A DNA stretch of 19,151 nt, taken from an uncultured Candidatus Soleaferrea sp. Its GTDB lineage: Bacteria > Bacillota > Clostridia > Oscillospirales > Ruminococcaceae. Below are positions 1 through 19,151 of this stretch, in pieces; positions within the stretch are counted from its first letter, which is position 1, and each line of letters begins with the position of its first letter. The notes beneath the pieces were generated by a model. It was not told the DNA's origin, searched no databases, and saw only the letters and a program-made list of their open reading frames with translations. A program made the position numbers and the translations under genes. The stretch lies in assembly GCA_934527325.1 (NCBI GenBank), contig CAKTAG010000016.1, positions 1 to 19,151 of the forward strand. The letters run 5' to 3'.

Positions 1-84
1 AGTCAAGACCCTTTATTTTACACAACAAAAAATTTTGATTTTTAATTTAACCTATTAATCTAATTTTTTTAGTTGCGCACCAAT

Positions 85-123
85 AAAATATGGGCCGCTG
101 GCTTAGCCAGCGGCCCATATTTT
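85..123 (-). terminator. Rho-independent terminator downstream of the yebC-like gene
   Basis: Near-perfect inverted repeat ATATGGGCCGCTGGC / GCCAGCGGCCCATAT (88-102 / 106-120) with a 3-nt loop, extendable by A:T pairs. It overlaps the TAA stop at 122-124. On the minus-strand RNA it is followed by AUAUUUUAUUGG. Confidence 0.85.
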
Positions 124-847: not shown

Positions 848-893
848 TTTTTTCACACCTCTTTATATAGTTGATTTTTTTATAAATTTTTAC

Positions 894-1724: not shown

Positions 1725-1739
1725 TGTTGTAACACACTC

Positions 1740-4048: not shown

Positions 4049-4123
4049 TAATAAACCTCCTAAGTGCAATGTAAATTATAATTTAAAATAGTACGTAAAT
4101 TATTAAATCTTAAATATGAAAAT

Positions 4124-4152
4124 ATTATACCATAAAATAAAAAAAAAGTATA
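4124..4152 (-). promoter_or_regulatory. Candidate extended -10 promoter for metG
   Basis: The minus strand reads TGGTATAAT (TGnTATAAT; TATAAT at 4129-4124, TG at 4132-4131). The -35 at 17-nt spacing is poor (TATACT), which an extended -10 tolerates. It lies about 75 nt upstream of the metG ATG. Confidence 0.4.
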
Positions 4153-4226
4153 GGTTAAAAAAGTTGTTTTGAGTGATATAGTAAAAAATAGTAAATTTTA
4201 CATAAAATTTTTATAGGCATAAAAGT

Positions 4227-4264
4227 AGTCGCCGCATAAATAAAAATTATAATTGGCGACGACT
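4227..4264 (-). terminator. Possible terminator after the 772-aa gene
   Basis: On the minus-strand RNA, AGUCGUCGC pairs with GCGGCGACU: 9 bp including one G.U that would be a C/A mismatch on the plus strand. It is followed by ACUUUUAUG. The loop is about 20 nt, which is large for an intrinsic terminator. Confidence 0.4.
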
Positions 4265-4296
4265 TATTGTACATATTATTATTAATTTAAGGTGAG

Positions 4297-6615
4297 CTAT
4301 TGTTTTGCTTGTTCAATTATTTGGCTAACATGGTTGCAAATTTCTTTAGCAAATTCTGCTTTATATGCTTCTGCCAAAATAGTTAAACCGTTACCTTTTT
4401 TTAATGGTTTAATTAAAGCGCTACCGTTTTTGTAGTTAATTAAAATTCCTTCGGATGTATTGTAGGTATTGTTGTTGGGGGAAATTTTTCTTAATATGCT
4501 GGTTATATTGTTGTCGCAAGGTATAGTTTTTAAAGACGTTTCAAATTCTGGAATAATATCTTTTATTTGTTTTATAGATTTTTGGGAATTTTTTAAGAAA
4601 GATAAAAATTTAATTGTTAGCATTAAAGCGTCTCTAACCCATGCTTGTTTTTTTGCTATTGTTCTGGCAGCTTCATCAGATTTATCAGCGGGACATTTAA
4701 AATATCTAAACACTTTAGAGTTATAGCTTTCTGCTATTTTGTTTATAATTTGTGGTGCATCTACTGGAATAGAAATATTATACCCTTTTTCAAATTCTTC
4801 TAAACAACAAGCGCAAACAACTTGCCAATGTGTTAAGCTGCTGTAGTTTAGGTTGCGGTTATTGATAGTTAGTTTTGTTCCGGCTGGGTTTATGTTTATT
4901 ATTGTGTCTTTGCTTAGCTCTGCGCCAAGGTTAGTTAAAATATTGTTCATTGTTGATTCTATTAATGGATTTTTAGACTTTACAATTGCTTTTAAACCTC
5001 TTAAGCCAAAAGGGGCTTGAGCTTTTAAAAAATTTGCATATAACCCTTTAATTCCAGACATATCAATTTGAGGAGGGAAGTCATTCCATCTACATCTGTT
5101 GTATTCTCCGTTTGCAATAGTAGCTTCTAAAGCTCTTTCAATATGGCGGGTGGCTGGTAGACCACCTTCAGAAAATATTTTTATTGTACCCGTTTTTTCT
5201 CCATTAATAAATACACCAAGTTTTAAATTGCAAAATGCCATTCCATATAAAAATAAAGATTCAAAATTATCTCCAAAATTCCAAACTTGTGTTCCGGTAG
5301 ATTGAATGCCGGCTATTAATGAACTTTTTAAATTTATAGCAAATGGAGTGTTGTTGGAACCTACAGCAATAGTAGAATCGCCAGTAATGCTTCCAAGCGC
5401 ACTGCCTACTTTTGCAAGAAATTCTGGGGTTAATTCTGTTCCAGCTTCACCTGTGATGCCATCGTCATCAATGTATTCCCTTTTAGCGGAAGAATATTTT
5501 ATATTATCTGTTATAATTATATTATCCTCTATAAATTTTTGTGGCCATATTTTTATGTTAGGGTAAACTGTAACAGAATTACCTATAACGGAATTGAACC
5601 CTATAGTGCTACCTTCAAATAGGTGGCAATCTTTTTTTATTGTTGCCCCGCTGCATACAATAGAATCTATTAAAGAAGAACGATCATCAATTAGTGCTCT
5701 TTCCTGAATATTGCTTCCTTTTATTTTAGAATTTTCGCCAATAATGCAGTTATCTTCTAACACAGAGTTAGGCCCAATTATAGCTCCTGTTTCTATTTTT
5801 ACATTTTCGCCTATATAAACAGGCGGAATTATTTTGTATAGTCCATGAGGTTTAGATGATTTAAATATATTTCCATCGTTGTTGAATTGGTTAAATATGT
5901 TACATTTTACTTTTTTATTTAATATATCTTTTTGGCAATTTAAAAAAGATCTCAAATCACCAATATCACACCAGTAAGAATTACTTTTAAAGGCCATTAA
6001 TTTCATATTATTTTTTAACATTAATGGAAAAACATCTTTTGCAAAATCAAATTCTTGGTTATTAGGTATAAGGCTTAAAACTTTAGGGTTTAGAATGTAT
6101 ATTCCTGTGTTAGCGGTATCTGTATTAACTTGGGAATAGCTAGGTTTTTCAATAAACCCTTTTATGTTATTTTCGTTATCTATGTTTACTAATCCATATT
6201 CTCTGGGGTCGGCTACACTTTTAACTATTACAGTTGCATAAGCTAAGTTTTTTTTGTGAAATTCTATTGCTGCAGATAAATCACAATCGGTGATAGCGTC
6301 ACCACTTATTACAATAAAATCATCTGTTATATTTTTAGAGGCGTTTTTCACACTACCTGCTGTACCTAATGGTGAAAGTTCTTCAAAAAATTCTAAATTA
6401 ATATTTTTATATTTTTTGTTTGGAAAGTGCTCTATAATATATTGAGATAAATATTTTACAGTTATTCCAGCAGATGAGATATTGTGTTTTTGTAACAGTT
6501 CTAAAATGTATTGTAGTATTGGTTTGCCGCAAAGTTTGGTCATTGGTTTTGGAATATTGCAAGTTAAAGGTCTTAACCTAGAACCTTTACCACCTGCCAT
6601 AATTATAGCATGCAT
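4297..6615 (-). CDS. Fusion protein: sugar-1-phosphate nucleotidyltransferase + left-handed beta-helix + phosphomannomutase/phosphoglucomutase-like C-terminal half
   Basis: N-terminus MHAIIMAGGKGSRLRPLTCNIPKPM (the GxGxRLxPLT..xPKP nucleotidyltransferase motif). Hexapeptide-repeat region around aa 265-355. From about aa 385, GITGEAGTELTPEFLAKVGSALG and onward follows the PGM/PMM domain I-IV layout. RBS AAGGAG upstream of the ATG at 6615. Confidence 0.9.
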   Translation of the reverse strand: MHAIIMAGGKGSRLRPLTCNIPKPMTKLCGKPILQYILELLQKHNISSAGITVKYLSQYIIEHFPNKKYKNINLEFFEELSPLGTAGSVKNASKNITDDFIVISGDAITDCDLSAAIEFHKKNLAYATVIVKSVADPREYGLVNIDNENNIKGFIEKPSYSQVNTDTANTGIYILNPKVLSLIPNNQEFDFAKDVFPLMLKNNMKLMAFKSNSYWCDIGDLRSFLNCQKDILNKKVKCNIFNQFNNDGNIFKSSKPHGLYKIIPPVYIGENVKIETGAIIGPNSVLEDNCIIGENSKIKGSNIQERALIDDRSSLIDSIVCSGATIKKDCHLFEGSTIGFNSVIGNSVTVYPNIKIWPQKFIEDNIIITDNIKYSSAKREYIDDDGITGEAGTELTPEFLAKVGSALGSITGDSTIAVGSNNTPFAINLKSSLIAGIQSTGTQVWNFGDNFESLFLYGMAFCNLKLGVFINGEKTGTIKIFSEGGLPATRHIERALEATIANGEYNRCRWNDFPPQIDMSGIKGLYANFLKAQAPFGLRGLKAIVKSKNPLIESTMNNILTNLGAELSKDTIININPAGTKLTINNRNLNYSSLTHWQVVCACCLEEFEKGYNISIPVDAPQIINKIAESYNSKVFRYFKCPADKSDEAARTIAKKQAWVRDALMLTIKFLSFLKNSQKSIKQIKDIIPEFETSLKTIPCDNNITSILRKISPNNNTYNTSEGILINYKNGSALIKPLKKGNGLTILAEAYKAEFAKEICNHVSQIIEQAKQ

Positions 6616-6647
6616 TGTTGTTTACTCCTTTAAATTTTTTTATTTAT

Positions 6648-6675
6648 AAAACCCCACGGGGTAACGTGGGGTTTT
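6648..6675 (-). terminator. Rho-independent terminator after the CotF-like gene
   Basis: AAAACCCCACG-GGGTAA-CGTGGGGTTTT: an 11-bp stem with a 6-nt loop and a T-run, located 9 nt downstream of the stop at 6684. Confidence 0.85.
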
Positions 6676-6683
6676 ATAAATAA

Positions 6684-6986
6684 TTAGTTGTTGTTGAATT
6701 TTTGTTTAGCTTGTGAAATTTTTTGCTGTTCTGCTGGTTGGGTAGGGTACCAACCGCGTTTATTCATTTCAGAAAAAACTTCAAATTGTATTTGATGTTC
6801 TTCATTTAAAATGTTCATAAATTCGTTTTTTACAGATGGGTTAGAACATTCGTTAGCGAATGTGTTATAATTTTCTGTTGCAAATTTTTGTGAAGAAAGG
6901 GCATCGGTTAATATTTCTTTTTCTCCAAAAGAATTAGAATTAAAGTAATTGTTTAATTGGTTGTTGTTATTAAAATTTGTTGGCAT
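6684..6986 (-). CDS. Spore coat protein, Coat F (CotF) family
   Basis: The pattern EKEILTDALSSQKFATENYNTFANECSNPSVKNEFMNILNEEHQIQFEVFSEMNKRGWY matches the Coat_F domain (L.D.L...K.....Y....E..np.lr......ee......f....GWY). Strong RBS AAGGAGGAAATTAAATG. Confidence 0.85.
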   Translation of the reverse strand: MPTNFNNNNQLNNYFNSNSFGEKEILTDALSSQKFATENYNTFANECSNPSVKNEFMNILNEEHQIQFEVFSEMNKRGWYPTQPAEQQKISQAKQKFNNN

Positions 6987-7022
6987 TTAATTTCCTCCTT
7001 TTTTAACTTATAATAGTTAGTT

Positions 7023-7208
7023 TTAATTTAATTGGTTTAATAGTCTATCGTAGTGGTTTTGATGTTTAGATGCAATTTGTTCACATTTTGTTTTAATTTG
7101 AGGGTCTGTACTTGCTTGAGCGTAAAGTTGATATTTTTTTATTAAAATTTGTTCGCTAGATAATTGGTCTTCGATGGCAGATAATTCTTTAGCAGTTAAA
7201 TTGGCCAT
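7023..7208 (-). CDS. Small (61 aa) helical protein paired with the CotF-like gene; likely spore-coat associated
   Basis: MANLTAKELSAIEDQLSSEQILIKKYQLYAQASTDPQIKTKCEQIASKHQNHYDRLLNQLN has a Coat-F-like helical repeat pattern. The ATG at 7208 follows AAAGGAG (7217-7223) with an 8-nt spacer. The upstream ATG at 7247 has no RBS. The gene lies immediately upstream of the CotF gene. Confidence 0.6.
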   Translation of the reverse strand: MANLTAKELSAIEDQLSSEQILIKKYQLYAQASTDPQIKTKCEQIASKHQNHYDRLLNQLN

Positions 7209-7332
7209 ATAAAAATCTCCTTTATAAAATAATTTTTTTGATATCATTATTATTTATCATTTCCAATTTTTTATTCATTAAAAAACTATATTTTATTAAT
7301 TAATAATTCTAAAAAAAATGTTTATTTTTTTG

Positions 7333-7361
7333 TTGACAACATTGGTTTTCAAGGTTATAAT
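7333..7361 (+). promoter_or_regulatory. Consensus sigma-A type promoter for the secreted-protein gene
   Basis: TTGACA (7333-7338), an exact 17-nt spacer, then TATAAT (7356-7361). It sits about 60 nt upstream of GGAGG (7413-7417) and the ATG at 7424. Confidence 0.75.
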
Positions 7362-7423
7362 ATAAATTATAAATAGTAATTTGAATATAATTTTTGAAAG
7401 TTAATTTTCTGTGGAGGTAAAAA

Positions 7424-8638
7424 ATGAAAATAAATAAAATTATTTCGGCTAGTTTAGTAGCAACTTTAAGTTGTGGTTTTGCAGGTGCTTTTAGTGTACA
7501 TGCTGCCTATACTGAAGATCGGGCTATAGAAAGATTTAATGAAGTTAAGAGTAAATATGGTATTGCTAATTTAGAGGGAGATGTTGTATTAAGTATATTA
7601 CAAGCGGATTTGGGTGTAGATTATAATGGTTTACTTAATTTTATAGATGATAATGGTAACCTACTTACACAAAAGATGACAGTTGAACAAAAGAAGAGAT
7701 TAAAAGATTCGTTAGCAGCTAATGGTTATACAGTAACAAAAGGAAATGAAGAAGGTACGTATGACATATATAAAGAAGGTAATGATACACCAGCTATATC
7801 TGCTGAGGATTTGAAGGAAGAATTAAGAAAACTTAAAACCGGATCACCGGATAGTAGTACTACTGATATTGACAATACTGGTAGTGGCTTTGTTATAAGT
7901 GGTGGAAGTAGTGGTTCAACAAGTACAAGTAGTAGTTCGACAAGTACAAGCACTGGTTCAACAAGCTCAAATACTAAAGTTGATTATGGTAGTGTTGGTG
8001 ACAAAAATAAAATTGTACAAGATAGCGGTGTATACAAATTTGCCAGTGAAAAAGCTGGTGTTACTAGGTTGCAAGAAGGAATAACAAACGTAGTGTTTGA
8101 ATCTACAATAAAAGATGCACAGGCAAAAGGTATGTCTTTGGTAACTATTGCTCTTGAAGGAACAGGTAAAGATGACGATACTAAAACTATATGGGCTTTA
8201 GATGTAGGGAGTGTAGTTGAAAACAAAATAGGTGTCCCCTTTGAAACAAAAGTTGTAGTTAGTGAAGGAATAAATATAATTAATGGAACATCAGAAACTG
8301 GTTCTAACTTATTATCTGCTGCTAAAATAAATGCGATACAAGATAGTGCAATAGCTACAGATGCTGGAGCAGCAGCAGAGTTAAAAACTGATATTAATAA
8401 AAAGGGTACCAAAGTTGTAGATTTTGGTAAAGCAGATGGTGATGCATTACCTTGTGCAGCAGCAGTAAGGGTAAATATAGCTGATACTGATAAGAAAATA
8501 AAAATTAAAGTATATTATATTTGTAATAGTAGATGTTATAAATTGGGAAATTTTGAAACAGATAGCAAAGGTAATGTAGTTTGTAATTTCAAAGCAGGAA
8601 GTCAAATCGGAGATTTTGTATTTGTTCCTGCTGAATAA
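7424..8638 (+). CDS. Secreted protein of unknown function (signal peptide, Ser/Thr linker, Cys-containing C-terminal domain)
   Basis: N-terminus MKINKIISASLVATLSCGFAGAFSVHA|AY is a Sec signal peptide with a VHA-A cleavage site. No LPXTG, SLH, lipobox or recognisable catalytic motif. Strong RBS and promoter. The antisense ORFs within it are shadows. Confidence 0.85.
   Translation: MKINKIISASLVATLSCGFAGAFSVHAAYTEDRAIERFNEVKSKYGIANLEGDVVLSILQADLGVDYNGLLNFIDDNGNLLTQKMTVEQKKRLKDSLAANGYTVTKGNEEGTYDIYKEGNDTPAISAEDLKEELRKLKTGSPDSSTTDIDNTGSGFVISGGSSGSTSTSSSSTSTSTGSTSSNTKVDYGSVGDKNKIVQDSGVYKFASEKAGVTRLQEGITNVVFESTIKDAQAKGMSLVTIALEGTGKDDDTKTIWALDVGSVVENKIGVPFETKVVVSEGINIINGTSETGSNLLSAAKINAIQDSAIATDAGAAAELKTDINKKGTKVVDFGKADGDALPCAAAVRVNIADTDKKIKIKVYYICNSRCYKLGNFETDSKGNVVCNFKAGSQIGDFVFVPAE
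7844..7975 (+). repeat. Low-complexity Ser/Thr/Gly-coding tract (interdomain linker)
   Basis: Encodes SPDSSTTDIDNTGSGFVISGGSSGSTSTSSSSTSTSTGSTSSNT. Short DNA units such as GGTTCAACAAG and ACAAGTACAAG each occur twice. Confidence 0.7.
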
Positions 8639-8682
8639 TAGATGAAATATAAATTGATAATTAAATTGATAAAAGCTCTATT

Positions 8683-8728
8683 TTGGTATGTATGTGAAAA
8701 GTTAGGTACTTTTTTAGTTACATACCAA
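8683..8728 (+). terminator. Long imperfect hairpin downstream of the secreted-protein gene (possible terminator)
   Basis: TTGGTATGTA (8683-8692) pairs with TACATACCAA (8719-8728). An inner stem pairs AAAAGT with ACTTTT around a 5-nt loop. The T-run (GGGGTTTTTATTTT) starts only about 8 nt later, so terminator function is uncertain. Confidence 0.35.
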
Positions 8729-8763
8729 TAATGGGGTTTTTATTTTATGTGAGGGATATTTAA

Positions 8764-10500
8764 ATGTTGGACGGTTTTTTTCTTAGTTTTATAATAGATG
8801 AGGTAAAAAATAAAGTTTTAAATTGCTATGTTGATAAATTATATCAACCTTCTAAAAATGAAGTGGTGTTACATTTTAGAACTCAAGGTAGCCCCAAGCT
8901 CTTAATATCTGCTAACCCAGATCAATCTAGAATAAATTTTATAAATGAAAAAATTGAACATCCACCAATACCATCTATGTTTTGTATGTTGTTGCGGAAG
9001 TATTTGGTTAATGCTAAACTTGTTAATGTATGTCAGCAAAATTTTGAAAGGCTAGTTTTTTTAGATTTTTATACATCAAATGAGGTGGGGGATAAAATTT
9101 CTGTTCGGTTAGTTGTAGAAGTTATGGGTAAGCATTCAAATATAATTTTGTTAAAGCAAGGTAATAATGTTATAGATTCTATAAAGCGTGTAGGTAGCGA
9201 TATATCTAGAGTAAGGCAAATTTACCCAGGTGTTATATATCAATTACCTCCTTTACAATGTAAGTGTAATATAGTAAAAAATAATGTAGATGAGATAGTA
9301 AATCAAGTATTGTTATTTTCAGATGAAACGTTGCCATCAGCAATTGTTAAAGCTGTTCAGGGAATTTCTTATACTATGGCCGATGAAATTTCTTTTGTTG
9401 TAGTTAATAATTTAGATTTTAAAGTTAAAGATTTAAATTTAGACCAGATTGAACAATTGAAAAAAAATTTTTGTAATTTAAAAATTTTAATAGAAGGTAA
9501 ACTTGGTTCACCGCTTTTGTTTAAAACTTTTGATGGCGAAATGAAAGATTTTTATTTTACAGAATTATGTAAATTTAAAAATAATGGTATTATAAGTAAA
9601 AAAAATTCTTATTCAGAATTGGTAGAAGAGTTTTATAAAAATAAAACAAATGAATGTAGAGTTAAACAGAATGCAAATGATGTACTTAAAATTTTAATGA
9701 ATTGTTTAAAGAAAACAAAAAAGAAATTACAAATCCATGAATTAGAAAAAGCGAATTGTGAAAATAAAAATAAAATACAACAGACAGCAATTTTACTTCA
9801 AAGTAACTTGCATTTGGTAAATAAAAATAGTAGTTATATTGTAGTAGAAAACTTTTTTGATAATAATAATAAAATAAAAATTGACTTAGATAATACAATT
9901 TCTGGGGCAGCAAATGCTCAAAAATATTTTAATAAATATAAAAAATTATGTGTAGCAGATAAAGTGTTGGATGAGTTGATTATAAAAACTAAAAATGAAA
10001 TTATTTATCTAGAATCAGTTATAGATGCTGTAATGAGGTCTACATCTTTAGAGGACATAATGCAAATTAAATTAGAGTTGCAACAAGAGGGGTATTTAAA
10101 AAAACATAAAAAACAAGCTAAAAATGTTAAAATAAAATCTCCTAAAGAGTCTGTTTTGAAAGTAAAGTCTGTAGATGATTTTGATATATTAGTTGGAAAT
10201 AACAATGTTAATAATGATTGGTTAACACTTAAATATGCAAATAAAAATGATTTGTGGTTACATACTCAAAAAATACCAGGTGCACATGTAGTAATTGTTA
10301 CTAATGGCAAAGATGTACCTAACACAACTGTTGTTCAAGCTGCAAAAATAGCAGCAGAACATAGTAAAGCAAAAAATAGTAATTTAGTACCTGTAGATTA
10401 TACTATAATAAAAAATGTAAAAAAATTTTCGGGTGCTAAGCCTGGTATGGTTAAGTATAGTAATTTTAAAACAATATTTGTAAAACCAGAAGTTAATTAG
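8764..10500 (+). CDS. rqcH: RqcH (NFACT / FbpA-DUF814 family) ribosome quality-control factor
   Basis: NFACT-N motifs PSMFCMLLRKYL and VEVMGKHSNIILL, a central coiled coil, and the C-terminal DUF814 motif LWLHTQKIPGAHVVI. The 578 aa length is typical. RBS GAGGG upstream. Confidence 0.93.
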   Translation: MLDGFFLSFIIDEVKNKVLNCYVDKLYQPSKNEVVLHFRTQGSPKLLISANPDQSRINFINEKIEHPPIPSMFCMLLRKYLVNAKLVNVCQQNFERLVFLDFYTSNEVGDKISVRLVVEVMGKHSNIILLKQGNNVIDSIKRVGSDISRVRQIYPGVIYQLPPLQCKCNIVKNNVDEIVNQVLLFSDETLPSAIVKAVQGISYTMADEISFVVVNNLDFKVKDLNLDQIEQLKKNFCNLKILIEGKLGSPLLFKTFDGEMKDFYFTELCKFKNNGIISKKNSYSELVEEFYKNKTNECRVKQNANDVLKILMNCLKKTKKKLQIHELEKANCENKNKIQQTAILLQSNLHLVNKNSSYIVVENFFDNNNKIKIDLDNTISGAANAQKYFNKYKKLCVADKVLDELIIKTKNEIIYLESVIDAVMRSTSLEDIMQIKLELQQEGYLKKHKKQAKNVKIKSPKESVLKVKSVDDFDILVGNNNVNNDWLTLKYANKNDLWLHTQKIPGAHVVIVTNGKDVPNTTVVQAAKIAAEHSKAKNSNLVPVDYTIIKNVKKFSGAKPGMVKYSNFKTIFVKPEVN

Positions 10501-10574
10501 TTGGCAGCGTTTATTTTTTTTAGTATATTATTTGATGTGGCAATTTGGTGTAGTGTAAGTATATATAGTGGTAT

Positions 10575-10628
10575 AAAACAAGCTGTAGTCAACTCGATTA
10601 AAAAAATCGTTTTGCTACAGCTTGTTTT
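10575..10628. terminator. Bidirectional terminator between convergent rqcH and the DUF1292 gene
   Basis: Perfect 14-bp stem AAAACAAGCTGTAG / CTACAGCTTGTTTT with an internally paired 26-nt loop (CGATT..AATCG). It is T-rich on the 3' side in both orientations. Confidence 0.8.
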
Positions 10629-10686
10629 TGATTTATTTTGTTTTTGCTTAATTTTTTAAAATATATATTTGTTATAGAGTTTCCAA

Positions 10687-11022
10687 TTATCTTTCAATAT
10701 CAAAATCGTCAGATAAATGGTCTATCATAAGTTGGCAAATTTCTTCGTAATCATCTTTACCTTCTATAGATACTAAAAATTCACCATCATCATCAGATGC
10801 TACTTCCATAATAAAAAGATCTGTAGAGTTGGTGTTTTCGTCACTTTCATCATTTTCGTTATTGAGTTCACCTGCAACGTCAGCCGGAATTAATGCGGCA
10901 TAATTTTTGTTTTTATACTCTATAATGTCTAGTATTATGCAGTCATGCTCGATTCCATCATCATCTGTTATGGTTATAATATCATCTGAATTTATATCAG
11001 ATTCGGGGATGTTATCATTCAT
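10687..11022 (-). CDS. DUF1292-family acidic small protein
   Basis: ITITDDDGIEHDCIILDIIEYKNKNYAALIP...LFIMEVASDDDGEFLVSIEGKDDYEEICQLM fits the DUF1292 pattern (short acidic protein; ...dedGee.e..il..ie..gk.Y..l.p...l.i.r...d.......). Confidence 0.85.
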   Translation of the reverse strand: MNDNIPESDINSDDIITITDDDGIEHDCIILDIIEYKNKNYAALIPADVAGELNNENDESDENTNSTDLFIMEVASDDDGEFLVSIEGKDDYEEICQLMIDHLSDDFDIER

Positions 11023-11083
11023 TAATAAAACCTACTTTCTTTTAATGTAATAGTATTAATTAAAAAATTTTTATTGCTTAATA

Positions 11084-11112
11084 ATTCTATACTATATTAT
11101 TAGTAAAGTCAA
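11084..11112 (-). promoter_or_regulatory. Candidate promoter for the DUF1292 gene
   Basis: The minus strand reads TTGACT (11112-11107), a 17-nt spacer, then TAGAAT (11089-11084). It lies about 60 nt upstream of the ATG at 11022. Confidence 0.5.
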
Positions 11113-11227
11113 TACAAAATTTTAATATAAAATACTGTAACACTACACTGTGCTGTTTTATAATGTATAGATCAGATTTTATAGAAAAAATTTTACATTT
11201 TGTTTTAACTGCAACCAATTTGTGGTA

Positions 11228-11881
11228 CTACAAATTAATCAAATTGCAATCTTTAATTGTATAAATTTTATCACATTCATTAGCAATATTAACATTATGT
11301 GTAACAATTAATATTGTTTTACCATTTTTATTTAATTGTTTTAATATCTGTAATATTTCTTTTGACGTTTCTTCATCTAACGACCCTGTAGGTTCATCTG
11401 CTAAAATTATTTCACAAGGTTTTAACATTACTCTGGCTAAAGATACCCTTTGCTGTTCGCCTCCACTAAGTTCATATACTTTATTATCCATTTTATCAGA
11501 TAATCCTACATACTCCAATACCTTTTGCTTAGCCAGCTGTTTTTCTTTTTTATTTTTATTTACATATTCCAGTGCTATATCTAAATTTTCAGATACAGTT
11601 TCATTATCTACTAAAGCAAAATTTTGAAATATATAACCTATTAAATTTCTATGCGCTAATGTAACTTGTTTGCCATCTATTTTACTATATCTTTTATTGT
11701 TAAGTATAACATCTCCACTATCAGGTTTTTCTATTAAACCAATTATATTTAGCAATGTAGATTTTCCCGAACCTGAACCACCCATTATTGCTATCATTTC
11801 ACCTTTATTAACTTTTAAATTAACATTATTCAGTATCTCTTTATTGCCAAAACTTTTCTTAATATTTTTTAACTCTATCAT
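11228..11881 (-). CDS. ABC transporter ATP-binding protein (MacB/FtsE-like subfamily)
   Basis: Walker A GGSGSGKST, Q-loop, signature LSGGEQQRVSLAR, Walker B ILADEPTGSLD, H-loop VTHN. Its ATG lies 2 nt after the permease stop (GGGGAATAAATATG). Confidence 0.93.
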   Translation of the reverse strand: MIELKNIKKSFGNKEILNNVNLKVNKGEMIAIMGGSGSGKSTLLNIIGLIEKPDSGDVILNNKRYSKIDGKQVTLAHRNLIGYIFQNFALVDNETVSENLDIALEYVNKNKKEKQLAKQKVLEYVGLSDKMDNKVYELSGGEQQRVSLARVMLKPCEIILADEPTGSLDEETSKEILQILKQLNKNGKTILIVTHNVNIANECDKIYTIKDCNLINL

Positions 11882-11883
11882 AT

Positions 11884-14169
11884 TTATTCCCCTTTCAACA
11901 CACTGCTGATTTTTTTATTTTCATATATTTTAAGTAATACTGCTGAAATAACTACATCTCCTAATACAATTCCTAATAATATTTTCCAATTTACAGACTC
12001 TATATAAAAATTGCTACTTGGTACCAATTTATCTATTAACACTATTTTACTTGGTATGTAAAATAAACATATCACTTTGTCTACCAGTTCTCCATTGTAA
12101 TTTATTAACAACATTAAACAAATTGATATTAACCATATTAATAATAAACTTCCAAAAAAACCTATACTTCTTTTTGCAAACCCGACCCCATTAAGTTTTT
12201 TTACTGTATTTTTTACCTTATTTTGTTCAAGGTAATTTATACACGATGATATAATTAACATCAATAATAATATAACAGAAAATATTGCATATTCTATTGT
12301 ATATATAAATTCTTGTTTAATTTCATAAATTTTTTGAGCTGCCGTTTCATATAACGTTTTTGCACTTATTAACAAGTTATCAATATTACAATCTTTAATA
12401 TCAGATATCACATCTTGGTATGGGTTATCTATATTACTAATTTTAGGGTAAAACCCATTACAATCACAACACCCATAGCTATCTATACACATATTATTAT
12501 TACTAATAACTTGTATTATTGAACCAATAACATAATTTTGCGTTTCTGTAGCTAAGTCCGTTTGATATGTAAAACACTTTTGGCCATCTTTAATATAAAT
12601 TATGTTTAATTTGTAATCTGGCCAATTATTACTATAAAATTCACCTTTATATTTTTCTTGAATTTGTTTTTCATATAATTTTAATCTTTCAGGTACAAGT
12701 AAATTTAAAGTATGTTCATCATGGTCAGGTATGTTAATTTGTTTACCGTTAATACCATATATTGGGTTGAGTTGTAAATAATTATTATTTACCTTTATAC
12801 TTTTTCCCAATATTTCATCTATTTTATTTTTTTTAATGTTTCCTCTTAACTTTTGTTGTTTTTCATATTCATCAATTCCTGCCCGATGATTTCTTGCATT
12901 AATATAAATTTCTCCTTTTTTGTTGCATATTTTAAACCATTTTTTCATATTTAAATCTAAATTTTCTACTTTTTCATCGTTATCACGTCCTGCAACTGTT
13001 CCTTCAAATAATCCACTACGTTTTACTAAAGTGTAATTTAACGCATTATCCCAAATTTTATTTCCTTCCATTTTGCCTATTAATAAATATAAACTATTGC
13101 TGCTATTTATTATAGCAGTTACCATTGCTACACTTATAAAGCATTTAGATATATTATTAATATTTTGTATTACCTTTACTGGTTTCTTATTTTTTAACAT
13201 CAACGGTATTTTTACATATTTTATAAACATAAGAGGAATAGCCATTAATAAAATAGAAATCAATGTTAATTTAAAATTAAACAATAACCAGTTTTTAAAA
13301 AATATACTTAAATTTTTTAAACCTAATTTATATATTAAAAAACTGAAAATCATAAAACCAGATAATCCACACCCGTATATATGGTACTTTAACAACTTTT
13401 TAAAAATAATCTTGATTTTTAAGCTAACATTTGATTCCCCAAACATTTTTTTTATAGCAAGTTCTTTATAAATAGAAAATAGCCAATATATCATCGTTAA
13501 AAATGTAATTACATATATTATAATCAATATTCCTATAATATTATTCTTTAAGCGGTAACATTCATCAGACTGCAACATATCTATTTCATTACTAGATGGT
13601 ACATAAAAAATTACTTCTTCACAACCTAATTCATTTTTCAAATCTTTTTCTAATAATTTAATTTTAGTTTGATTATTTGTATCAACAAACCATTTACTAA
13701 TTAACTCTCCATTATATAAAATACCAGATAAATTATATATGTTAAGAATAGAATCTAAGCTAAAAAATTCAAATTTCCCAAGTTGATTTTCGTCTTTTAA
13801 ATCTTCTGAAGAAATAAATTTATTGTAAAAATCTTCATTTCTTAAAAGTCTACCATTTGAAAGTTTTAATTTGTTAAACATATTTCCATTACATGTAGAA
13901 TAAACTCTAATCGTTCTTTTTCCATTCCCTGACTTGCTTTTATAACTAACATTATATATATTTAAATTATGCTTCTTAGATAGTGATTCAAAAATTTCTA
14001 TTAACTGTTTTGGAGTATTAATTTTTTTTACATTATATATACGAAAGCAAGAAACATTATCATCTTTCCATAATATGTTTCTAACATTTTTAAATTCATA
14101 TAGGCTAATATAAACTATTGAGGTTAAAAAATAAATTAAAAATAAAAAAATAGATATTAATTTTTTCAA
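11884..14169 (-). CDS. Large polytopic ABC permease, DUF1430 / FtsX-like 'bacteriocin-associated integral membrane protein' type
   Basis: 761 aa with a TTG start preceded by AAGGGAG. The architecture is TM1, an extracytoplasmic domain of ~190 aa, a TM cluster, a second extracytoplasmic domain of ~250 aa (with a CIDSYGCCDCNG motif), then 3 C-terminal TMs. FtsX-like loops KKMFGES and KKLNGVGFAKR are present. It is immediately followed by the ABC ATPase, as in lactococcin-972 loci. The family call rests on architecture and context. Confidence 0.85.
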   Translation of the reverse strand: MKKLISIFLFLIYFLTSIVYISLYEFKNVRNILWKDDNVSCFRIYNVKKINTPKQLIEIFESLSKKHNLNIYNVSYKSKSGNGKRTIRVYSTCNGNMFNKLKLSNGRLLRNEDFYNKFISSEDLKDENQLGKFEFFSLDSILNIYNLSGILYNGELISKWFVDTNNQTKIKLLEKDLKNELGCEEVIFYVPSSNEIDMLQSDECYRLKNNIIGILIIIYVITFLTMIYWLFSIYKELAIKKMFGESNVSLKIKIIFKKLLKYHIYGCGLSGFMIFSFLIYKLGLKNLSIFFKNWLLFNFKLTLISILLMAIPLMFIKYVKIPLMLKNKKPVKVIQNINNISKCFISVAMVTAIINSSNSLYLLIGKMEGNKIWDNALNYTLVKRSGLFEGTVAGRDNDEKVENLDLNMKKWFKICNKKGEIYINARNHRAGIDEYEKQQKLRGNIKKNKIDEILGKSIKVNNNYLQLNPIYGINGKQINIPDHDEHTLNLLVPERLKLYEKQIQEKYKGEFYSNNWPDYKLNIIYIKDGQKCFTYQTDLATETQNYVIGSIIQVISNNNMCIDSYGCCDCNGFYPKISNIDNPYQDVISDIKDCNIDNLLISAKTLYETAAQKIYEIKQEFIYTIEYAIFSVILLLMLIISSCINYLEQNKVKNTVKKLNGVGFAKRSIGFFGSLLLIWLISICLMLLINYNGELVDKVICLFYIPSKIVLIDKLVPSSNFYIESVNWKILLGIVLGDVVISAVLLKIYENKKISSVLKGE

Positions 14170-14189
14170 TTATTTCTCCCTTCTAACAC

Positions 14190-14235
14190 AAATAAATTAT
14201 TACCAGAAGTAATTACTTCTGGTAATAATTTATTT
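14190..14235 (-). terminator. Perfect 46-nt palindrome (23-bp arms): intra-operon hairpin, likely a partial terminator or transcript stabiliser
   Basis: AAATAAATTATTACCAGAAGTAATTACTTCTGGTAATAATTTATTT is exactly self-complementary. It starts 24 nt after the stop of the Lcn972-like ORF and ends about 10 nt before the permease RBS. Confidence 0.6.
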
Positions 14236-14259
14236 AATATGTAATGAATAATATTTTAC

Positions 14260-14550
14260 TCAATCTTGAGTGTATCCACATTTTTTATCTATGCTACATC
14301 TGTGCCAAAAACCATGTCCATGTTTAGAACTATGCCTATAATTATCTTTTTGTTCTGAACGTGCAATAACACCACGTGCCACACATATCCTATCTGTTTC
14401 CCAAGATGTTTCGTTATAAACTTGTGTTGAAGCTCCATGAGGTTTTGTGTTATGTAAATATTCAGAGTATATTATATCATCACCATTTTCCTCGCAATAT
14501 CCCACAATCCAGTTTTCGCCACCAACTTTACTAATCACTTCTTCCCACAT
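14260..14550 (-). CDS. Lactococcin 972-family bacteriocin-like protein, without a signal peptide
   Basis: By-eye alignment to the mature Lcn972 peptide as I remember it (EGTWQHGYGV..AYSNYHHGSKTHSATV..RAGVWAKATV..FYYNFW). The matches are GENWIVGY / IIYSEYLHNTKPHGASTQV / ARGVIARSE / HGFW. The DUF1430-like permease and ABC ATPase lie directly downstream. The start is uncertain: ATG at 14550, or GTG at 14538. Confidence 0.7.
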   Translation of the reverse strand: MWEEVISKVGGENWIVGYCEENGDDIIYSEYLHNTKPHGASTQVYNETSWETDRICVARGVIARSEQKDNYRHSSKHGHGFWHRCSIDKKCGYTQD

Positions 14551-15047
14551 CCTTTATCAGACTTTTCATATATAATATGTAACGTTAATCTATATGTAAA
14601 GCAAAATAATAAATAAGTACACCAATATGTTATCTGATACATAAATTCCCATTTGACAAATACTATATAGCAAAAAATCCATAGCCATTGACCACAATAG
14701 TATAATATTAGTTCCCATTTATTATGAAATCTAGTTAAATCTTTTTGATAATCTCTCTTCACTTTAGACTTTATACATTTATATACTCGAGCCAAATTTT
14801 TACTTAATACACCATTGTTTTTTCTATCAATTATCTTAGATGCAAAAAATATTATATAAATAAAAATAAAACCTAACAACAATAAAAAAGAGCATATTAA
14901 AAAAAATTCTAAATTATACTGATTTGTCATTACCATAATCTCTAAAAGAAATAAATCAGAAGATATAAACAAGCAAAACAACACTTTACTTAATTTACTT
15001 CGAAAAATTTTACTTAAGTGGTTATCTATATTACAGATATCCTTCAT
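14535..15047 (-). CDS. Uncharacterised small membrane protein (~4 TM), candidate immunity/accessory protein
   Basis: A 170-codon ORF, which is very unlikely by chance in DNA this AT-rich. The ATG overlaps the upstream stop (ATGA at 15044-15047). It has hydrophobic segments at about aa 22-40, 48-70, 113-132 and 139-158, and a basic loop SKIIDRKNNGVLSKNLARVYKCIKSKVKRDYQK. I recognise no family. Confidence 0.7.
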   Translation of the reverse strand: MKDICNIDNHLSKIFRSKLSKVLFCLFISSDLFLLEIMVMTNQYNLEFFLICSFLLLLGFIFIYIIFFASKIIDRKNNGVLSKNLARVYKCIKSKVKRDYQKDLTRFHNKWELILYYCGQWLWIFCYIVFVKWEFMYQITYWCTYLLFCFTYRLTLHIIYEKSDKGCGKK

Positions 15048-15304
15048 AAAATTTTAGTCCCCTTTATATTATTTGTGATATTTGCAGGTTCAGGATATTT
15101 AGCAGCTTCGCTACCTAATTCATACCCTTCACATGCTTCAGTAAGAGCTCCTACAACAGCAGCTGCAGCCTTACTCTTAGGTGGTGGTGCTCCATCTTTA
15201 ACCTTACTAGGCTCAACACGCCCCATATCATTAGATATAATTAATGTATTTGCCACTAATAAACTAGCACTCAAAAAAGTAATAAAATATTTCTTTAATT
15301 TCAC
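15044..15304 (-). CDS. Small secreted protein (signal peptide plus an Ala/Pro/Gly-rich part of ~60 aa), unknown function
   Basis: The tracked ORF starts at a TTG (15328). The GTG at 15304 follows AAGG with an 8-nt spacer and gives (M)KLKKYFITFLSASLLVANTLIIS, a typical n-h signal region. The locally GC-richer stretch has G/C in codon positions 1-2 (Ala/Gly/Pro) and A/T at position 3, which supports this frame. Confidence 0.6.
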   Translation of the reverse strand: MKLKKYFITFLSASLLVANTLIISNDMGRVEPSKVKDGAPPPKSKAAAAVVGALTEACEGYELGSEAAKYPEPANITNNIKGTKIL

Positions 15305-15343
15305 ATTTTCAGCCTTATTATTAATCAATTATATTATATTTTC

Positions 15344-15372
15344 ATTGTAACCTAAACACAATAAAACATCAA
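15344..15372 (-). promoter_or_regulatory. Candidate promoter of the accessory cluster
   Basis: The minus strand reads TTGATG (15372-15367), a 17-nt spacer, then TACAAT (15349-15344). It lies about 40 nt upstream of the GTG at 15304. Confidence 0.5.
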
Positions 15373-15427
15373 TACATTTTATGTTATTTTAAAGTAAACG
15401 TCTTAGTCAATGCGAATTTAAGTATTT

Positions 15428-16357
15428 TTATTCAAAATTTATTTCTTTATCTTTTAACATAACATGGTTAATATTTTGTATTTTGTTTTGGTTATTTAAT
15501 TTATTAATTACATCCATAATAATATTAGAAGGTGTAGAAGCCCCAGCTGTGATGCCAACGTTTTTATATATACTAAAATCATATTTAGTTAAGTCTAAAG
15601 CGGTTTCTATTAAATAAGTAGTACAATTGGGTTTACAAACGCTAACTAATTTTTGAGTATTAGAACTATTTCTATCACCAATAATTAACATTAAATCTTT
15701 TTTTTTAGACATATTAGCTGCTTCGATTTGCCTTTTTTTTGTTTCATTGCAAATAGTATCAAATATCTCATAGTTAATAAAGTTCGCTTTTATTATTTCT
15801 ACGCATTTTTCTAATTCTAGAGGGTTATATGTAGTTTGAGTTACTACTTTGATATTTTTGTTTGTTAAATGATGGTTATTTTTTAAATATTCATTAAGAG
15901 TATTAGAGTTTGCAATAGTTTTAAAGTTATATATGCAGTGCCCTTCAATACCTTTAATTTCTGGGTGATTTTCATCACCTATTATTATAACAAAAATAAG
16001 GTTATTGTCTATTTTTTCACCTGTTTTATTATTAATGAATTCACTAGAAACTATATTATGTATTTTAGAAACAAAAGGGCAAGTGCCATTTAAAAAATTT
16101 TTTTTAGAAAGTTGTGCAAAAACATCATTACTAACACCATGTGAGCGTATTACAATTGTTTCATCATTTTTGGCATCATTTATATTTTCTATTACTTTAA
16201 CACCCTTGCAAGCAAGTTCATTAATCATATTTTTGTTGTGTATTATATTGCCCAAAGTACAAATTTTTTTGTTTTGGTCTAGTGCATCATATATCATTTT
16301 TATAGCTCTTTGAACACCAAAACAAAACCCAGCAGATTTTGCTAATTCTATATTCAT
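15428..16357 (-). CDS. ispH: 4-hydroxy-3-methylbut-2-enyl diphosphate reductase (stand-alone, no S1 fusion)
   Basis: MNIELAKSAGFCFGVQRAI, GTCPFVSKIH and DTICNETKKRQ supply the three Fe-S cysteines of IspH/LytB. The HPE motif is also present. Confidence 0.95.
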   Translation of the reverse strand: MNIELAKSAGFCFGVQRAIKMIYDALDQNKKICTLGNIIHNKNMINELACKGVKVIENINDAKNDETIVIRSHGVSNDVFAQLSKKNFLNGTCPFVSKIHNIVSSEFINNKTGEKIDNNLIFVIIIGDENHPEIKGIEGHCIYNFKTIANSNTLNEYLKNNHHLTNKNIKVVTQTTYNPLELEKCVEIIKANFINYEIFDTICNETKKRQIEAANMSKKKDLMLIIGDRNSSNTQKLVSVCKPNCTTYLIETALDLTKYDFSIYKNVGITAGASTPSNIIMDVINKLNNQNKIQNINHVMLKDKEINFE

Positions 16358-16384
16358 AATATTGGTAACTCCATAAAATTTAAT

Positions 16385-16978
16385 TTATTTTGTTGGTGTG
16401 AGGTTTTTAATATTATCCATAATAAATTTACTTGCGTCTCTAATTTGTTGTAATGAATTTTCTGTGATATTTAATTTATTAGCTGGTATAACCTTTCCAT
16501 ATATAACATCTATTTTGCTTCTAAACTTAATTGGTTCGTGGTAAATTATTTTAATAGGGAGTATATCGGCATGAGCTTTATAGGCTATTAGTGCTGCACC
16601 AGCTTTTGGTTTTAAAAAATCACCATTTTTAGATCGAGTTCCTTCGGGGAATATAACAATAAAATTATTATTGTTTATTAAGTTAATAGATGTGGCTATA
16701 GCAGATGCATCTTTTTTACCTCTTGCAACAGGGAAAGCGCCTAATTTTTTTAAAAAATTACCTAAAAATTTATATTTAAAAAGTTCTTCTTTAGCCATAA
16801 AATATAAATATTTTTTTATGGGTTTTGATATTAATATAGGGTCCCAATTTGAACGGTGGTTACAACAAATTATACAACCTTGATTCTGTGGTATATTTTC
16901 AATACCATAATAGTTTACATTAAAAAATATTTTAGAGGCGAAAATAACGCTATTTTTTACGAATTTATAAAAAATCAT
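16385..16978 (-). CDS. plsC: 1-acyl-sn-glycerol-3-phosphate acyltransferase
   Basis: Acyltransferase motifs NHRSNWD (HX4D) and FPEGTRS. The ATGA overlap with the cmk stop indicates translational coupling. Confidence 0.9.
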   Translation of the reverse strand: MIFYKFVKNSVIFASKIFFNVNYYGIENIPQNQGCIICCNHRSNWDPILISKPIKKYLYFMAKEELFKYKFLGNFLKKLGAFPVARGKKDASAIATSINLINNNNFIVIFPEGTRSKNGDFLKPKAGAALIAYKAHADILPIKIIYHEPIKFRSKIDVIYGKVIPANKLNITENSLQQIRDASKFIMDNIKNLTPTK

Positions 16979-17655
16979 TTAAGTATAGTATTAGTTATAA
17001 TTTTATATATGTGGTTTAAAGTCTGGTTAAAATCCATGTTAGAAGAGTCTACCAAAATAGCGTCATTGGCTTGTTTTAAGGGTGCAATTTCTCTAGAACT
17101 ATCATTTTTGTCCCTTTCTACAAGTTCTTTGTAAACGTCATCAAAGTTTATATTGTTGTTATTGGTTAATAAAAGTTCTTTGTACCTTCTAATTGCTCTA
17201 CTTTTTTTAGAGGCGGTTAAAAATATTTTAAGGTTGGCATTAGGCAACACAACAGTACCAATATCTCTACCATCCATAATTACGTTATTATTTTTTGCCA
17301 TGTTTTGTTGTAAATCAAACAAAAATTCCCTAACAAAATTAAAAGCAGAAATGGTAGAAGCAACCATTGAAATTTTTGGTGTTCTAATATTATTGGTTAC
17401 ATCTTTATTGTTTAAAATAATTTTTTGAGAATTGTTTGTGTATTCTAGTTTTATGTTTATGTTTTTTAAACTGTTTTTTATAGCAGATTGGTTATTGGGT
17501 GAAATATTGTTCTCTGTTATATAAAAAGCAATAGCTCTGTAAAGTGCACCGGTATCTACGTAAATGAATCCAAGTTTTTTAGCAAGTTGTTTAGCAATGG
17601 TAGATTTTCCAGCACCGCAAGGGCCGTCTATTGCTATAGATTTATAATTTTCCAT
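16975..17655 (-). CDS. cmk: Cytidylate kinase
   Basis: IAIDGPCGAGKSTIAKQLAKKLGFIYVDTGALYRA (P-loop and the Cmk signature). The tracked ORF extends to 17751 and overlaps the upstream gene. The ATG at 17655 (MENYKSIAIDGP) gives a typical length of 226 aa and lies 12 nt beyond the malQ-like stop. Confidence 0.93.
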   Translation of the reverse strand: MENYKSIAIDGPCGAGKSTIAKQLAKKLGFIYVDTGALYRAIAFYITENNISPNNQSAIKNSLKNINIKLEYTNNSQKIILNNKDVTNNIRTPKISMVASTISAFNFVREFLFDLQQNMAKNNNVIMDGRDIGTVVLPNANLKIFLTASKKSRAIRRYKELLLTNNNNINFDDVYKELVERDKNDSSREIAPLKQANDAILVDSSNMDFNQTLNHIYKIITNTILK

Positions 17656-17666
17656 CTGGTTTAAAA

Positions 17667-19151
17667 TTACCTCCCATAAAGGTTTGATAGTTGATTTAAT
17701 TTTTTGGAAATTTGCTTGTTTAATTTTTTTTCTGGAATTCGCCAACACCAATTAGTAGCTTTTTTTGAAGTGTTGTATAAAGCCATTTTATTGCGTAAGC
17801 TTACAACATCTTGAATAGGGGTTATTATTTTTTCTGCAGCACTTTGGTATGCAGATGTAATAAAAGCGTAGTTAAACTTTGTTTTAGATGTTGGTTTAAT
17901 ATATTGGCAGCAATATTTTTTTTCAATAGAAGGTAGTTTATTTTTCCATTGTTTTAAATTTGAAAAAACATATGAACTGGTAAAAATCACATCTGTAGAT
18001 GAATAGTTATGAGGTAAACATATTTCACATTTTTCTTCGGAAAAAGCAGATTGCATTATTTTTATAATAGGGAATTTGTAATTTTTGTTATTAGGTTTTT
18101 TATTATAATTGCAGTCATATAAAATAGGTTTAAAAAATAAAATCCTGGTTTCTAAAATTTTAAAAACGGCATCTTTTATACCAGGTTTTTCTGTGAATTT
18201 TTGTAATTCAAATTTGCCAGATGCAGAATCTTTTTCAATTACTTTATAGTTATCGTATTGGTCGAAATTATCTATAATTAATTCGTCATATACTTTGTAT
18301 AGAAATTGTATTTTTTTGGTTAAAAATCTGTAATTTGTTTTTTTGAGTTCTTTTAGATTGTAAACTGCTTTAGTGTTAAAAGAATATTTATTGTAAATAA
18401 CTTGTTGTTCGTGAAATAATTTTTGGGTAGGGTGTTTATCTTTATCTAGCATAAATAAATTAGGTTTTGCCCAAACATTTGCACTATCTAACTCACAGTA
18501 AAAAGGAAATTCACCAAGTATTTTTATGTTTTTAGAATTAGCGTATTTTTTTAATGCAAACCACTGGGAGTAAAATAAATATTGAAGGAATACCCAAAAA
18601 TCTATTTTATCTTTTAATTGTTCTTTATATATATCTAATGTTAATTTTTTTCTATTTTTAACAGCATCGTCCCATTGTTGCCACGGCTTATTTTCAAAAA
18701 CATATTTTTTTAAACAAATATATAATGTGTAATCTTCTAACCAAAAGCTATTGTTAGCTCTAAATTTTTCTATGTTGTGTTTAATTTTGTTGTAACTTTG
18801 TTTAAATGCTTGTTCTAATATATAAAATTTATAAATATCAAGTTTTTTATAATTTATTTTTAAATTATCTGTGTAAAAATTTTTTATGTATTTTTGGTAA
18901 GATTTTTTATCTAGTAAATTTTGCTCGACTAATTTTTTTATATCTATTAAGTATATGTTACCAGCTAAAATAGAGTAAGTACAATAAGGGGAACCAGTGC
19001 TGTTTACATGGCTAATAGGTGGTAAGTGCCAATATTTTTGCTTAGATTCAAATAAAAAATCTATAAAACTGTAAGCATTTTCGCCTAATGTTCCTATTCC
19101 CTCATTTCCAGGTAAAGAAAATACAGGCAATAAAATTCCTGCTGATCTCAT
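17667..19151 (-). CDS. GH77 4-alpha-glucanotransferase (amylomaltase, MalQ) homolog, apparently with degenerate catalytic motifs
   Basis: N-terminus MRSAGILLPVFSLPGNEGIGTLGENAYSFIDFL..YWHLPP, plus ILGEFPFYCELDSANVW, IIKIMQSAF, LPHNY and PIQDVV..NWCWRI, all match the GH77 layout. The ATG sits at the window edge (19151). See the finding on catalytic residues. Confidence 0.8.
   Translation of the reverse strand: MRSAGILLPVFSLPGNEGIGTLGENAYSFIDFLFESKQKYWHLPPISHVNSTGSPYCTYSILAGNIYLIDIKKLVEQNLLDKKSYQKYIKNFYTDNLKINYKKLDIYKFYILEQAFKQSYNKIKHNIEKFRANNSFWLEDYTLYICLKKYVFENKPWQQWDDAVKNRKKLTLDIYKEQLKDKIDFWVFLQYLFYSQWFALKKYANSKNIKILGEFPFYCELDSANVWAKPNLFMLDKDKHPTQKLFHEQQVIYNKYSFNTKAVYNLKELKKTNYRFLTKKIQFLYKVYDELIIDNFDQYDNYKVIEKDSASGKFELQKFTEKPGIKDAVFKILETRILFFKPILYDCNYNKKPNNKNYKFPIIKIMQSAFSEEKCEICLPHNYSSTDVIFTSSYVFSNLKQWKNKLPSIEKKYCCQYIKPTSKTKFNYAFITSAYQSAAEKIITPIQDVVSLRNKMALYNTSKKATNWCWRIPEKKLNKQISKKLNQLSNLYGR

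Follow-up and report, generated by a model that had tools for sequence, protein, structure and literature searches.

A 69-nt in-frame deletion as the very probable origin of a leaderless Lcn972-family gene in an uncultured gut Oscillospiraceae species

The stretch of DNA analyzed here (contig CAKTAG010000016.1 of an uncultured Candidatus Soleaferrea sp., positions 1 to 19,151, hereafter the window) contains a short open reading frame (ORF) of the lactococcin 972 (Lcn972) bacteriocin family. The ORF lacks the secretory (Sec) leader of such precursors and, when read from its most upstream ATG, begins inside the preceding gene. How did this gene come by so unusual a start? A first-pass annotation, made from the letters of the window, had offered three explanations: a leaderless peptide translated by reinitiation and exported by a dedicated ATP-binding cassette (ABC) system; a single fusion gene split by a 1-nt insertion or deletion (indel); or a decaying gene. 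Comparison with related loci showed that the leader was almost certainly lost through a real deletion of 69 nt. The features on which this rests are the following.

14260 to 14538, minus strand: the Lcn972-family ORF from its probable true start, GTG 14538-14536, 92 codons, stop TGA 14262-14260 (Pfam PF09683; orthologous start).
14550-14548 (ATG) to 14262-14260 (stop), minus strand: the longest version of the same ORF, 96 codons (direct reading, ORF list).
14526 to 14529, minus strand: the deletion scar, AAA/GTT (14529-14527/14526), ambiguous across the A run (pairwise comparison with contigs L006 and L014).
14535 to 14556, minus strand: the stop/start junction that had been flagged at first, with TAA 14556-14554, a Shine-Dalgarno-like AAAGGA, the in-frame ATG 14550-14548 and a GTGA overlap at 14538-14535.

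The longest ORF is the 92-codon version with four further codons (MWEE) at its N-terminus. When the gene was compared with the intact allele on L006 and L014, a 26-nt identical prefix was followed by a gap of exactly 69 nt (23 codons), missing in frame from the window, after which both alleles resumed with GTTGGTGG. The peptide segment removed, KVVNILFGVCIISALSFFVFAEK, comprises the h-region, the c-region and the cleavage site of a Sec leader. Codons 5-27 are thus gone and MISK is joined straight to VGGENW, about where the mature peptide would start. A protein search found two relatives with a classical Sec-type leader: P0001 (120 aa, contig L006), with the leader MISKKVVNILFGVCIISALSFFVFA, cleavage and then EKVGGGNWTVGY (EKVGGGNW), and P0002 (121 aa, contig L007), with the leader MVCKKITGFSIVTLMTFMFGILAFEVFA, cleavage and then QSVGGGDW. 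The difference is plain in the hydropathy of the N-terminus. The maximum Kyte-Doolittle (KD) mean over 12 residues within the first 40 residues was 0.5-0.7 in the deletion alleles, whereas none of the 22 leader-bearing relatives fell below 1.9. The window ORF has no h-region and so lacks the Sec-type signal peptide of its family; the initial observation that no hydrophobic stretch precedes the mature domain was therefore confirmed. In L006, imperfect 10-nt direct repeats, AAAAAGGTTG and AAAAAGTTGG, bracket the lost segment and have 6 exact bases in common. They were read by eye from the alignment; being imperfect and shifted by one base, they were not listed by an automated repeat search. Slippage or a microhomology-mediated deletion at these repeats may have caused the loss.

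The deletion is found well beyond the window. By exact-sequence look-up, the 96-aa ORF was recovered in the same arrangement from five metagenome contigs of independent assembly, whose identity to the window is 99.6-100%. In all, the deletion haplotype was present in the window and 11 other fetched contigs (L001-L005, L012, L013, L095-L098), and the intact haplotype in two (L006 and L014). The deletion contigs represent over 10 samples, among them a human gut metagenome from the Hadza, and carry three naming styles (k141, NODE/scaffold, Logan), which suggests that several different assemblers lie behind them. Three linked substitutions beside the scar (GGA to GGC, GGA to GAA, ACT to ATT) are common to all of them, including L013, a sub-lineage diverged by 1-1.5% from the window. 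The existence of leader-bearing orthologs at this position had been named as a sign of an assembly artefact; such orthologs do exist, but a haplotype with linked single-nucleotide polymorphisms that recurs in 12 independent assemblies speaks against that conclusion. The neighbors of the intact gene in L006 match those of the window (cmk, plsC, ispH, a secreted-protein gene and a 170-aa gene), and since cmk, plsC and ispH are 99.5-99.7% identical between the window and the intact allele, both alleles belong to the same species.

The leader was present in all 22 full-length relatives retrieved, a set that includes the outgroup L007/P0002, the 50%-identity representatives P0025 and P0026 and the profile-search matches P0028-P0043 and P0045. 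Their leaders consist of a K/R-rich n-region, a hydrophobic core (KD at least 1.9) and a [VA]FA-type c-region. Because the outgroup and the 21 other relatives all carry it, the deletion is the derived state; judged by this distribution, leaderlessness is a recent acquisition of one haplotype. The only other leaderless entry, P0044 (68 aa, from NCBI), is an N-terminally truncated type-B fragment that also lacks GGG.W; it may be a second case of structural-gene decay in the Lcn972 family. No matches to the junction 25-mer or to the family alignment were found in JGI metagenome scans, nor to a 3-sequence alignment in a scan of GTDB representative genomes.

Is the ORF nevertheless a member of the Lcn972 family? 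By itself it matched PF09683 (Lactococcin_972) marginally, with 22.7 bits at a cutoff of 22 (E 1.5e-4), profile position 1 aligning at residue 10 of the 96-aa ORF. Against NCBIfam TIGR01653 it reached 21.1 bits, below the cutoff of 32.1, with a match that begins at profile position 30; the shortfall arises because profile positions 1-29, which represent the leader, are absent from the window ORF. PF09683 was matched by all ten aligned relatives (best E 5.4e-15), and a profile of the aligned relatives matched the PDB entries 2LGN (Lcn972, E 3e-5) and 9HKJ (E 1.3e-5). The homology proposed at first thus held up in the search with hidden Markov models; as far as sequence comparison goes, it is real but weak for the window ORF alone and secure at the level of the family. 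An AlphaFold model of the 96-aa ORF, built on a 3-sequence alignment, gave all-beta secondary structure only and, with a predicted local distance difference test score of 41, was too poor for a fold comparison. The ORF keeps four cysteine residues, one of them in the swapped tail (see below). Having lost its leader, the window allele is, by descent, a predicted defective member of the Lcn972 family and not a functional precursor of the usual kind. An alternative genetic code (TGA = Trp) was ruled out, since table 11 gives full-length conserved housekeeping ORFs and MetRS can be aligned with its Oscillospiraceae orthologs across residues 1-513. This MetRS shows 82% identity to the one of MAG RGIG8779 and 81% to the one of a Candidatus Soleaferrea MAG.

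While the structural gene has lost its leader, the genes downstream of it are intact.

11884 to 14169, minus strand: permease of 761 aa, DUF1430/TIGR01654 "bacteriocin-associated integral membrane protein" (PF07242, 30.8 bits, cutoff 28.2).
11228 to 11881, minus strand: ABC ATPase of the Lcn972 group, 217 aa (TIGR03608, 284.1 bits, cutoff 254.85).
14287 to 14307, minus strand: recombination crossover interval, TGG CAC AGA TGT AGC ATA GAT, encoding WHRCSID.
14190 to 14235, minus strand: hairpin between the peptide gene and the permease gene, with a perfect 20-bp AT-rich stem and a U-rich tract.

The permease matches TIGR01654 over its full length, with a score below the cutoff, and is 60% identical to P0004, which adjoins a type-B Lcn972 gene in L009. 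It has no internal stops in any deletion contig, and its ratio of nonsynonymous to synonymous polymorphism (pN/pS) against L013 was 0.29. The ATPase is likewise intact in all deletion contigs that reach its gene. The linkage of an Lcn972 gene to a DUF1430/TIGR01654 protein and a TIGR03608 ATPase, as known for this family, is therefore present in the window. On the 54-kb contig L009, positions 4493-10637 hold two tandem pairs of an Lcn972 gene and a DUF1430 permease (108 aa + 756 aa, then 105 aa + 727 aa) with one TIGR03608-type ATPase after them, and the two peptide/permease modules appear to share this single ATPase.

The 3' end of the gene has a different affinity from its 5' part. Homology to L006 ends at 14286 (blastn). 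Upstream of the crossover the gene is of "type A", like L006, whereas the tail, the terminator and the transporter downstream are of "type B": the window tail ...IDKKCGYTQD*, the position of the hairpin and the start of the permease gene all match type B (L009, L010), and L009, L010, P0030, P0031, P0033 and P0034 all end WHRCGIDK(K/N)CGY(T/D)QD. The window permease is 53-60% identical to type-B permeases, while the permease of L006 resembles that of L007. From this mosaic we conclude that the tail and the transporter were brought in from a second Lcn972 subtype, through recombination at the conserved WHRCGID motif. Peptide tail and transporter type co-vary across loci, which suggests that they are exchanged together and, possibly, function together. 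The hairpin, first seen as a blastn self-match, folds with -29.7 kcal/mol (z = -6.7) and is probably an intrinsic terminator or attenuator, even though a consensus terminator scan did not report this AT-rich element at 14190-14235. At this position L009 and L010, both type B, also carry a hairpin, whose stem differs in sequence.

What, then, is the leaderless gene today? We consider it probable that it is a non-secreted remnant in a non-producer strain that keeps the transporter and, probably, immunity. One 69-bp in-frame deletion almost certainly removed the Sec signal peptide in one lineage of an uncultured gut Oscillospiraceae species. Any translation would begin at the GTG, coupled in the ordinary way to that of the upstream gene (orf170) through the GTGA overlap. 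The product, MISKVGGENW..., would stay in the cytoplasm and would not be an active bacteriocin: with no h-region or cleavage site it could not use Sec. Lcn972 was reported to bind lipid II (PMC4055356); as lipid II would be met outside the cell, a cytoplasmic copy would be inert and the strains would not produce the bacteriocin. The strain keeps its ABC permease and ATPase intact, and this pair would be a putative immunity or transport module, as the B/C-type ABC genes are regarded (PMC4055356), and the ORF would be a young remnant that has not yet acquired stop codons. The combination of a disabled structural gene with intact and constrained transporter genes, which marks a non-producer allele, was found here; the immunity role is putative and comes from the literature. 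Of the options raised at first, the decaying gene is consequently the best supported, by way of an in-frame leader deletion and with no frameshift.

Several points weigh against a mere remnant. That immunity is retained is something we infer, and the role of the B/C proteins has not been confirmed by experiment for any Lcn972 locus (PMC11796350); the fate of the product and the lack of production are likewise deduced from sequence. The ORF is open in all 12 deletion contigs (the tail in L012 being uninterpretable), and the deletion is in frame and cuts out the leader almost exactly. In the mature region pN/pS is not raised, with 2 nonsynonymous and 3 synonymous differences from L006 and 2 of each from L013, numbers much too low to reveal whether constraint has been relaxed or maintained. 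Finally, the deletion allele is the majority among the sampled contigs (12 vs 2) and is therefore at least not strongly deleterious. However, the divergence accumulated since the deletion does not exceed ~1.5%, so that an open ORF of 92 codons is expected by chance and pN/pS cannot discriminate between the readings.

The same observations could be read as signs of a functional leaderless bacteriocin, a mature-only peptide made by GTGA-coupled translation and exported by the newly acquired type-B ABC transporter. We regard this as unlikely. The in-frame deletion does join M-I-S-K to the beginning of the mature domain, all 12 contigs have the ORF open and this allele is the commoner one, the TIGR03608 family bears the name "putative bacteriocin export ABC transporter", and the four cysteines are kept, including the one in the swapped tail. 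But none of the 22 full-length relatives does without a Sec-type leader, the other leaderless entry being only a 68-aa fragment; Lcn972-like peptides are thought to use Sec, with the B/C genes serving immunity or transport in a role that is unproven; GGG.W is changed to GGE.W, with further changes at conserved residues; the neighboring secreted-protein gene of the module is visibly degraded; and the open frame is what chance would leave at such low divergence. Leaderless class II bacteriocins are small, cationic and helical, and they are leaderless across the whole family. The window gene, in contrast, stems from a leader-bearing family, and its leaderlessness is derived and recent, confined to one allele and one recent haplotype. 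Known examples such as enterocin DD14 have no leader and are exported by dedicated ABC systems (PMC9865063). In a more specific form, leader excision together with the recombined type-B tail and transporter would have made a functional leaderless peptide with Sec-independent export by the DUF1430/TIGR03608 pair, which we hold to be more doubtful still. If true, it would be the first leaderless member of the Lcn972 family and direct evidence that the "immunity" ABC pair can export.

Alternatively, the leaderless domain might have taken on an intracellular role, serving for instance as decoy or regulator for the transporter or for lipid II metabolism. All that points in this direction is that the ORF has stayed open and that its allele is the majority one. 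The literature searched holds no precedent, the lipid II that Lcn972 was reported to bind (PMC4055356) would be met outside the cell, and conserved motif residues are altered; such a role is very improbable. A search of the literature for Lcn972 with signal peptide loss or a pseudogene found nothing relevant.

An assembly or sequencing artefact, in which the 69-nt gap would be a collapse between short repeats, is scarcely credible. Imperfect 10-nt direct repeats do flank the deleted segment, and the window is itself probably a metagenome-derived contig, as an NCBI/ENA contig of 19.3 kb carries an identical permease; the repeats, however, have 6 exact bases in common, far below any assembler k-mer, and the junction recurs with its linked substitutions in three naming styles and more than 10 samples, the diverged sub-lineage L013 among them.

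The junction with the upstream gene remains to be explained.

14535 to 15047, minus strand: orf170, predicted four-helix membrane protein of 170 aa (ORF list).

The positions first assigned to the stop of the 170-aa gene, the ATG and the closing TAA all proved correct on the minus strand. orf170 ends ...KSDKGCGKK with a TGA at 14537-14535, and the TAA at 14556-14554, followed by AGG, closes the 96-aa frame upstream of the ATG. Read from that ATG, the ORF overlaps orf170 by 16 nt, in which there are short runs of G and of A. The orthologous 120-aa precursor P0001, however, starts at the GTG that overlaps the orf170 TGA (GTGA), and the GTG is also used by several gene calls on other contigs (P0016, 92 aa). 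The ATG is present and in frame in L006 as well, where it yields a 124-aa version (P0018); it abuts the Shine-Dalgarno-like AAAGGA and would set MWEE before the positively charged n-region. The real start is thus probably GTG 14538-14536, in a routine 4-nt GTGA stop/start overlap. The ATG in the -1 frame inside the upstream gene, as described at first, is real in position but owes its prominence to the choice of the longest ORF. The junction sequence GGATGTGGGAAGAAGTGATTAGTAAA is identical in the window, L006 and L014, and comparison of the orthologous loci revealed two genes, not one, in L006, L014 and L007; in L007 the orf170 ortholog and the Lcn972 gene are separate and non-overlapping, with a stop, a strong GGAGG and an ATG between them. 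That orf170 and the Lcn972 domain are one protein, split by a 1-nt indel or joined by a programmed frameshift within 14538-14553, can practically be dismissed: the overlap and its G and A runs, which had prompted the idea, are base-for-base the same in L006 and L014, which have the same two-gene layout and a complete signal peptide in the downstream gene, the genes stand apart in L007, 12 independent assemblies agree on the sequence, and no frame-joining event is needed or seen there, the lesion being the deletion at 14529-14526, just outside that interval.

orf170 matched no Pfam or NCBIfam family. Orthologs of 170 aa (L006) and 186-190 aa (L007) are found at the equivalent place, immediately upstream of type-A Lcn972 genes. 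Compared with L006 it shows 11 nonsynonymous and 3 synonymous differences (pN/pS 0.77), a fast evolution between conspecific strains, and it may be an accessory or immunity protein.

Upstream of orf170 lies a further gene of the module, which is also damaged.

15044 to 15328, minus strand: remnant of a gene that encodes a secreted Ala/Gly-rich protein; 86 aa when read from GTG, 94 aa in its longest ORF (alignments).

Its intact ortholog in L006 (2919-3389) encodes 153-156 aa with a signal peptide and is the first gene of the module; the L007 ortholog (66-446, 126 aa) shows a faint Gly-zipper_YMGG match (E 0.01). The Ala/Gly-rich protein could be a second membrane-active peptide that loci of this type secrete. 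Relative to the ortholog, the window gene lacks 177 nt, a loss that keeps the frame, and another 49 nt, a loss that shifts it, and in L013 (7313-7495) an extra 1-nt insertion leaves a gene call of 60 aa. Within the Lcn972 gene, replacements at family-conserved positions were seen in all deletion alleles (GGG.W to GGE.W, and T to I), in the window allele (G to S in HRCG) and in the L013 allele (A to V in HGAST, H to Y in WHRC).

Three further differences between contigs were observed. Between ispH and the bacteriocin module, at ~15376 on the minus strand, L006 has 19 extra bases (GTAAAATTTTTCTAAAAAC) compared with all deletion-lineage contigs; the difference lies in a putative promoter region and may affect expression of the operon. 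In L012 the last 29 nt of the contig (4612-4640) diverge from all other contigs and give rise to a 75-aa gene call, P0017. As the divergence is confined to these 29 nt, P0017 was not counted as a case of further decay; the end of L012 is either a contig-end artefact or a further rearrangement. A 578-aa NFACT-family gene, one ORF in the window (8764-10500, plus strand), is represented by two calls (475 + 82 aa) in L001 (5946-7682), a contig 99.6% identical to the window, which suggests a frameshift or stop in L001, in the strain or in the assembly.

How does the locus compare with known systems? The Lcn972 operon of Lactococcus lactis pBL1 (lcn972 + orf2-orf3) has the same peptide family (PF09683, 2LGN match) and the same gene order, from the structural gene to a large DUF1430-type membrane protein and a TIGR03608 ABC ATPase. 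It differs in that the window gene belongs to a distant subfamily (22.7 bits alone) with four cysteines, the window locus has two extra upstream genes (the secreted Ala/Gly-rich protein and the 170-aa membrane protein), the window allele lacks the Sec leader, and the host is an uncultured gut Oscillospiraceae bacterium and not a lactic acid bacterium. The closest described case is scb of Streptococcus pneumoniae, where 27.5% of genomes keep scbBC and have lost scbA by natural deletion; scbBC-only strains include D39/TIGR4/R6, as opposed to scbABC producers (PMC11796350). There, too, the polymorphism is found within a species, the bacteriocin is deleted and the putative immunity/transport genes B/C are kept, and the outcome in both lineages would be a non-producer that may stay immune. 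While the scb deletion takes the whole of scbA and the ComE-box promoter (PMC11796350), the window deletion takes only 23 leader codons and leaves the mature ORF, and the non-producer allele is commoner here (12 contigs vs 2) than in pneumococci (~27%).

Decay of a bacteriocin structural gene with the transporter kept is an already known kind of event, and the main value of the present result is one of correction: the odd gene start is traced to a defined 69-bp deletion and not to a fusion, recoding or assembly error. It adds a gut-commensal case of producer/non-producer polymorphism at an Lcn972-type locus. In addition, Lcn972-type loci appear to be shuffled as modules at WHRCGID, the C-terminal tail moving with the transporter. 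The two natural alleles would be a pair well suited to asking whether the DUF1430/ABC pair confers immunity or acts as an exporter, and whether the tail of the peptide is matched to its transporter.

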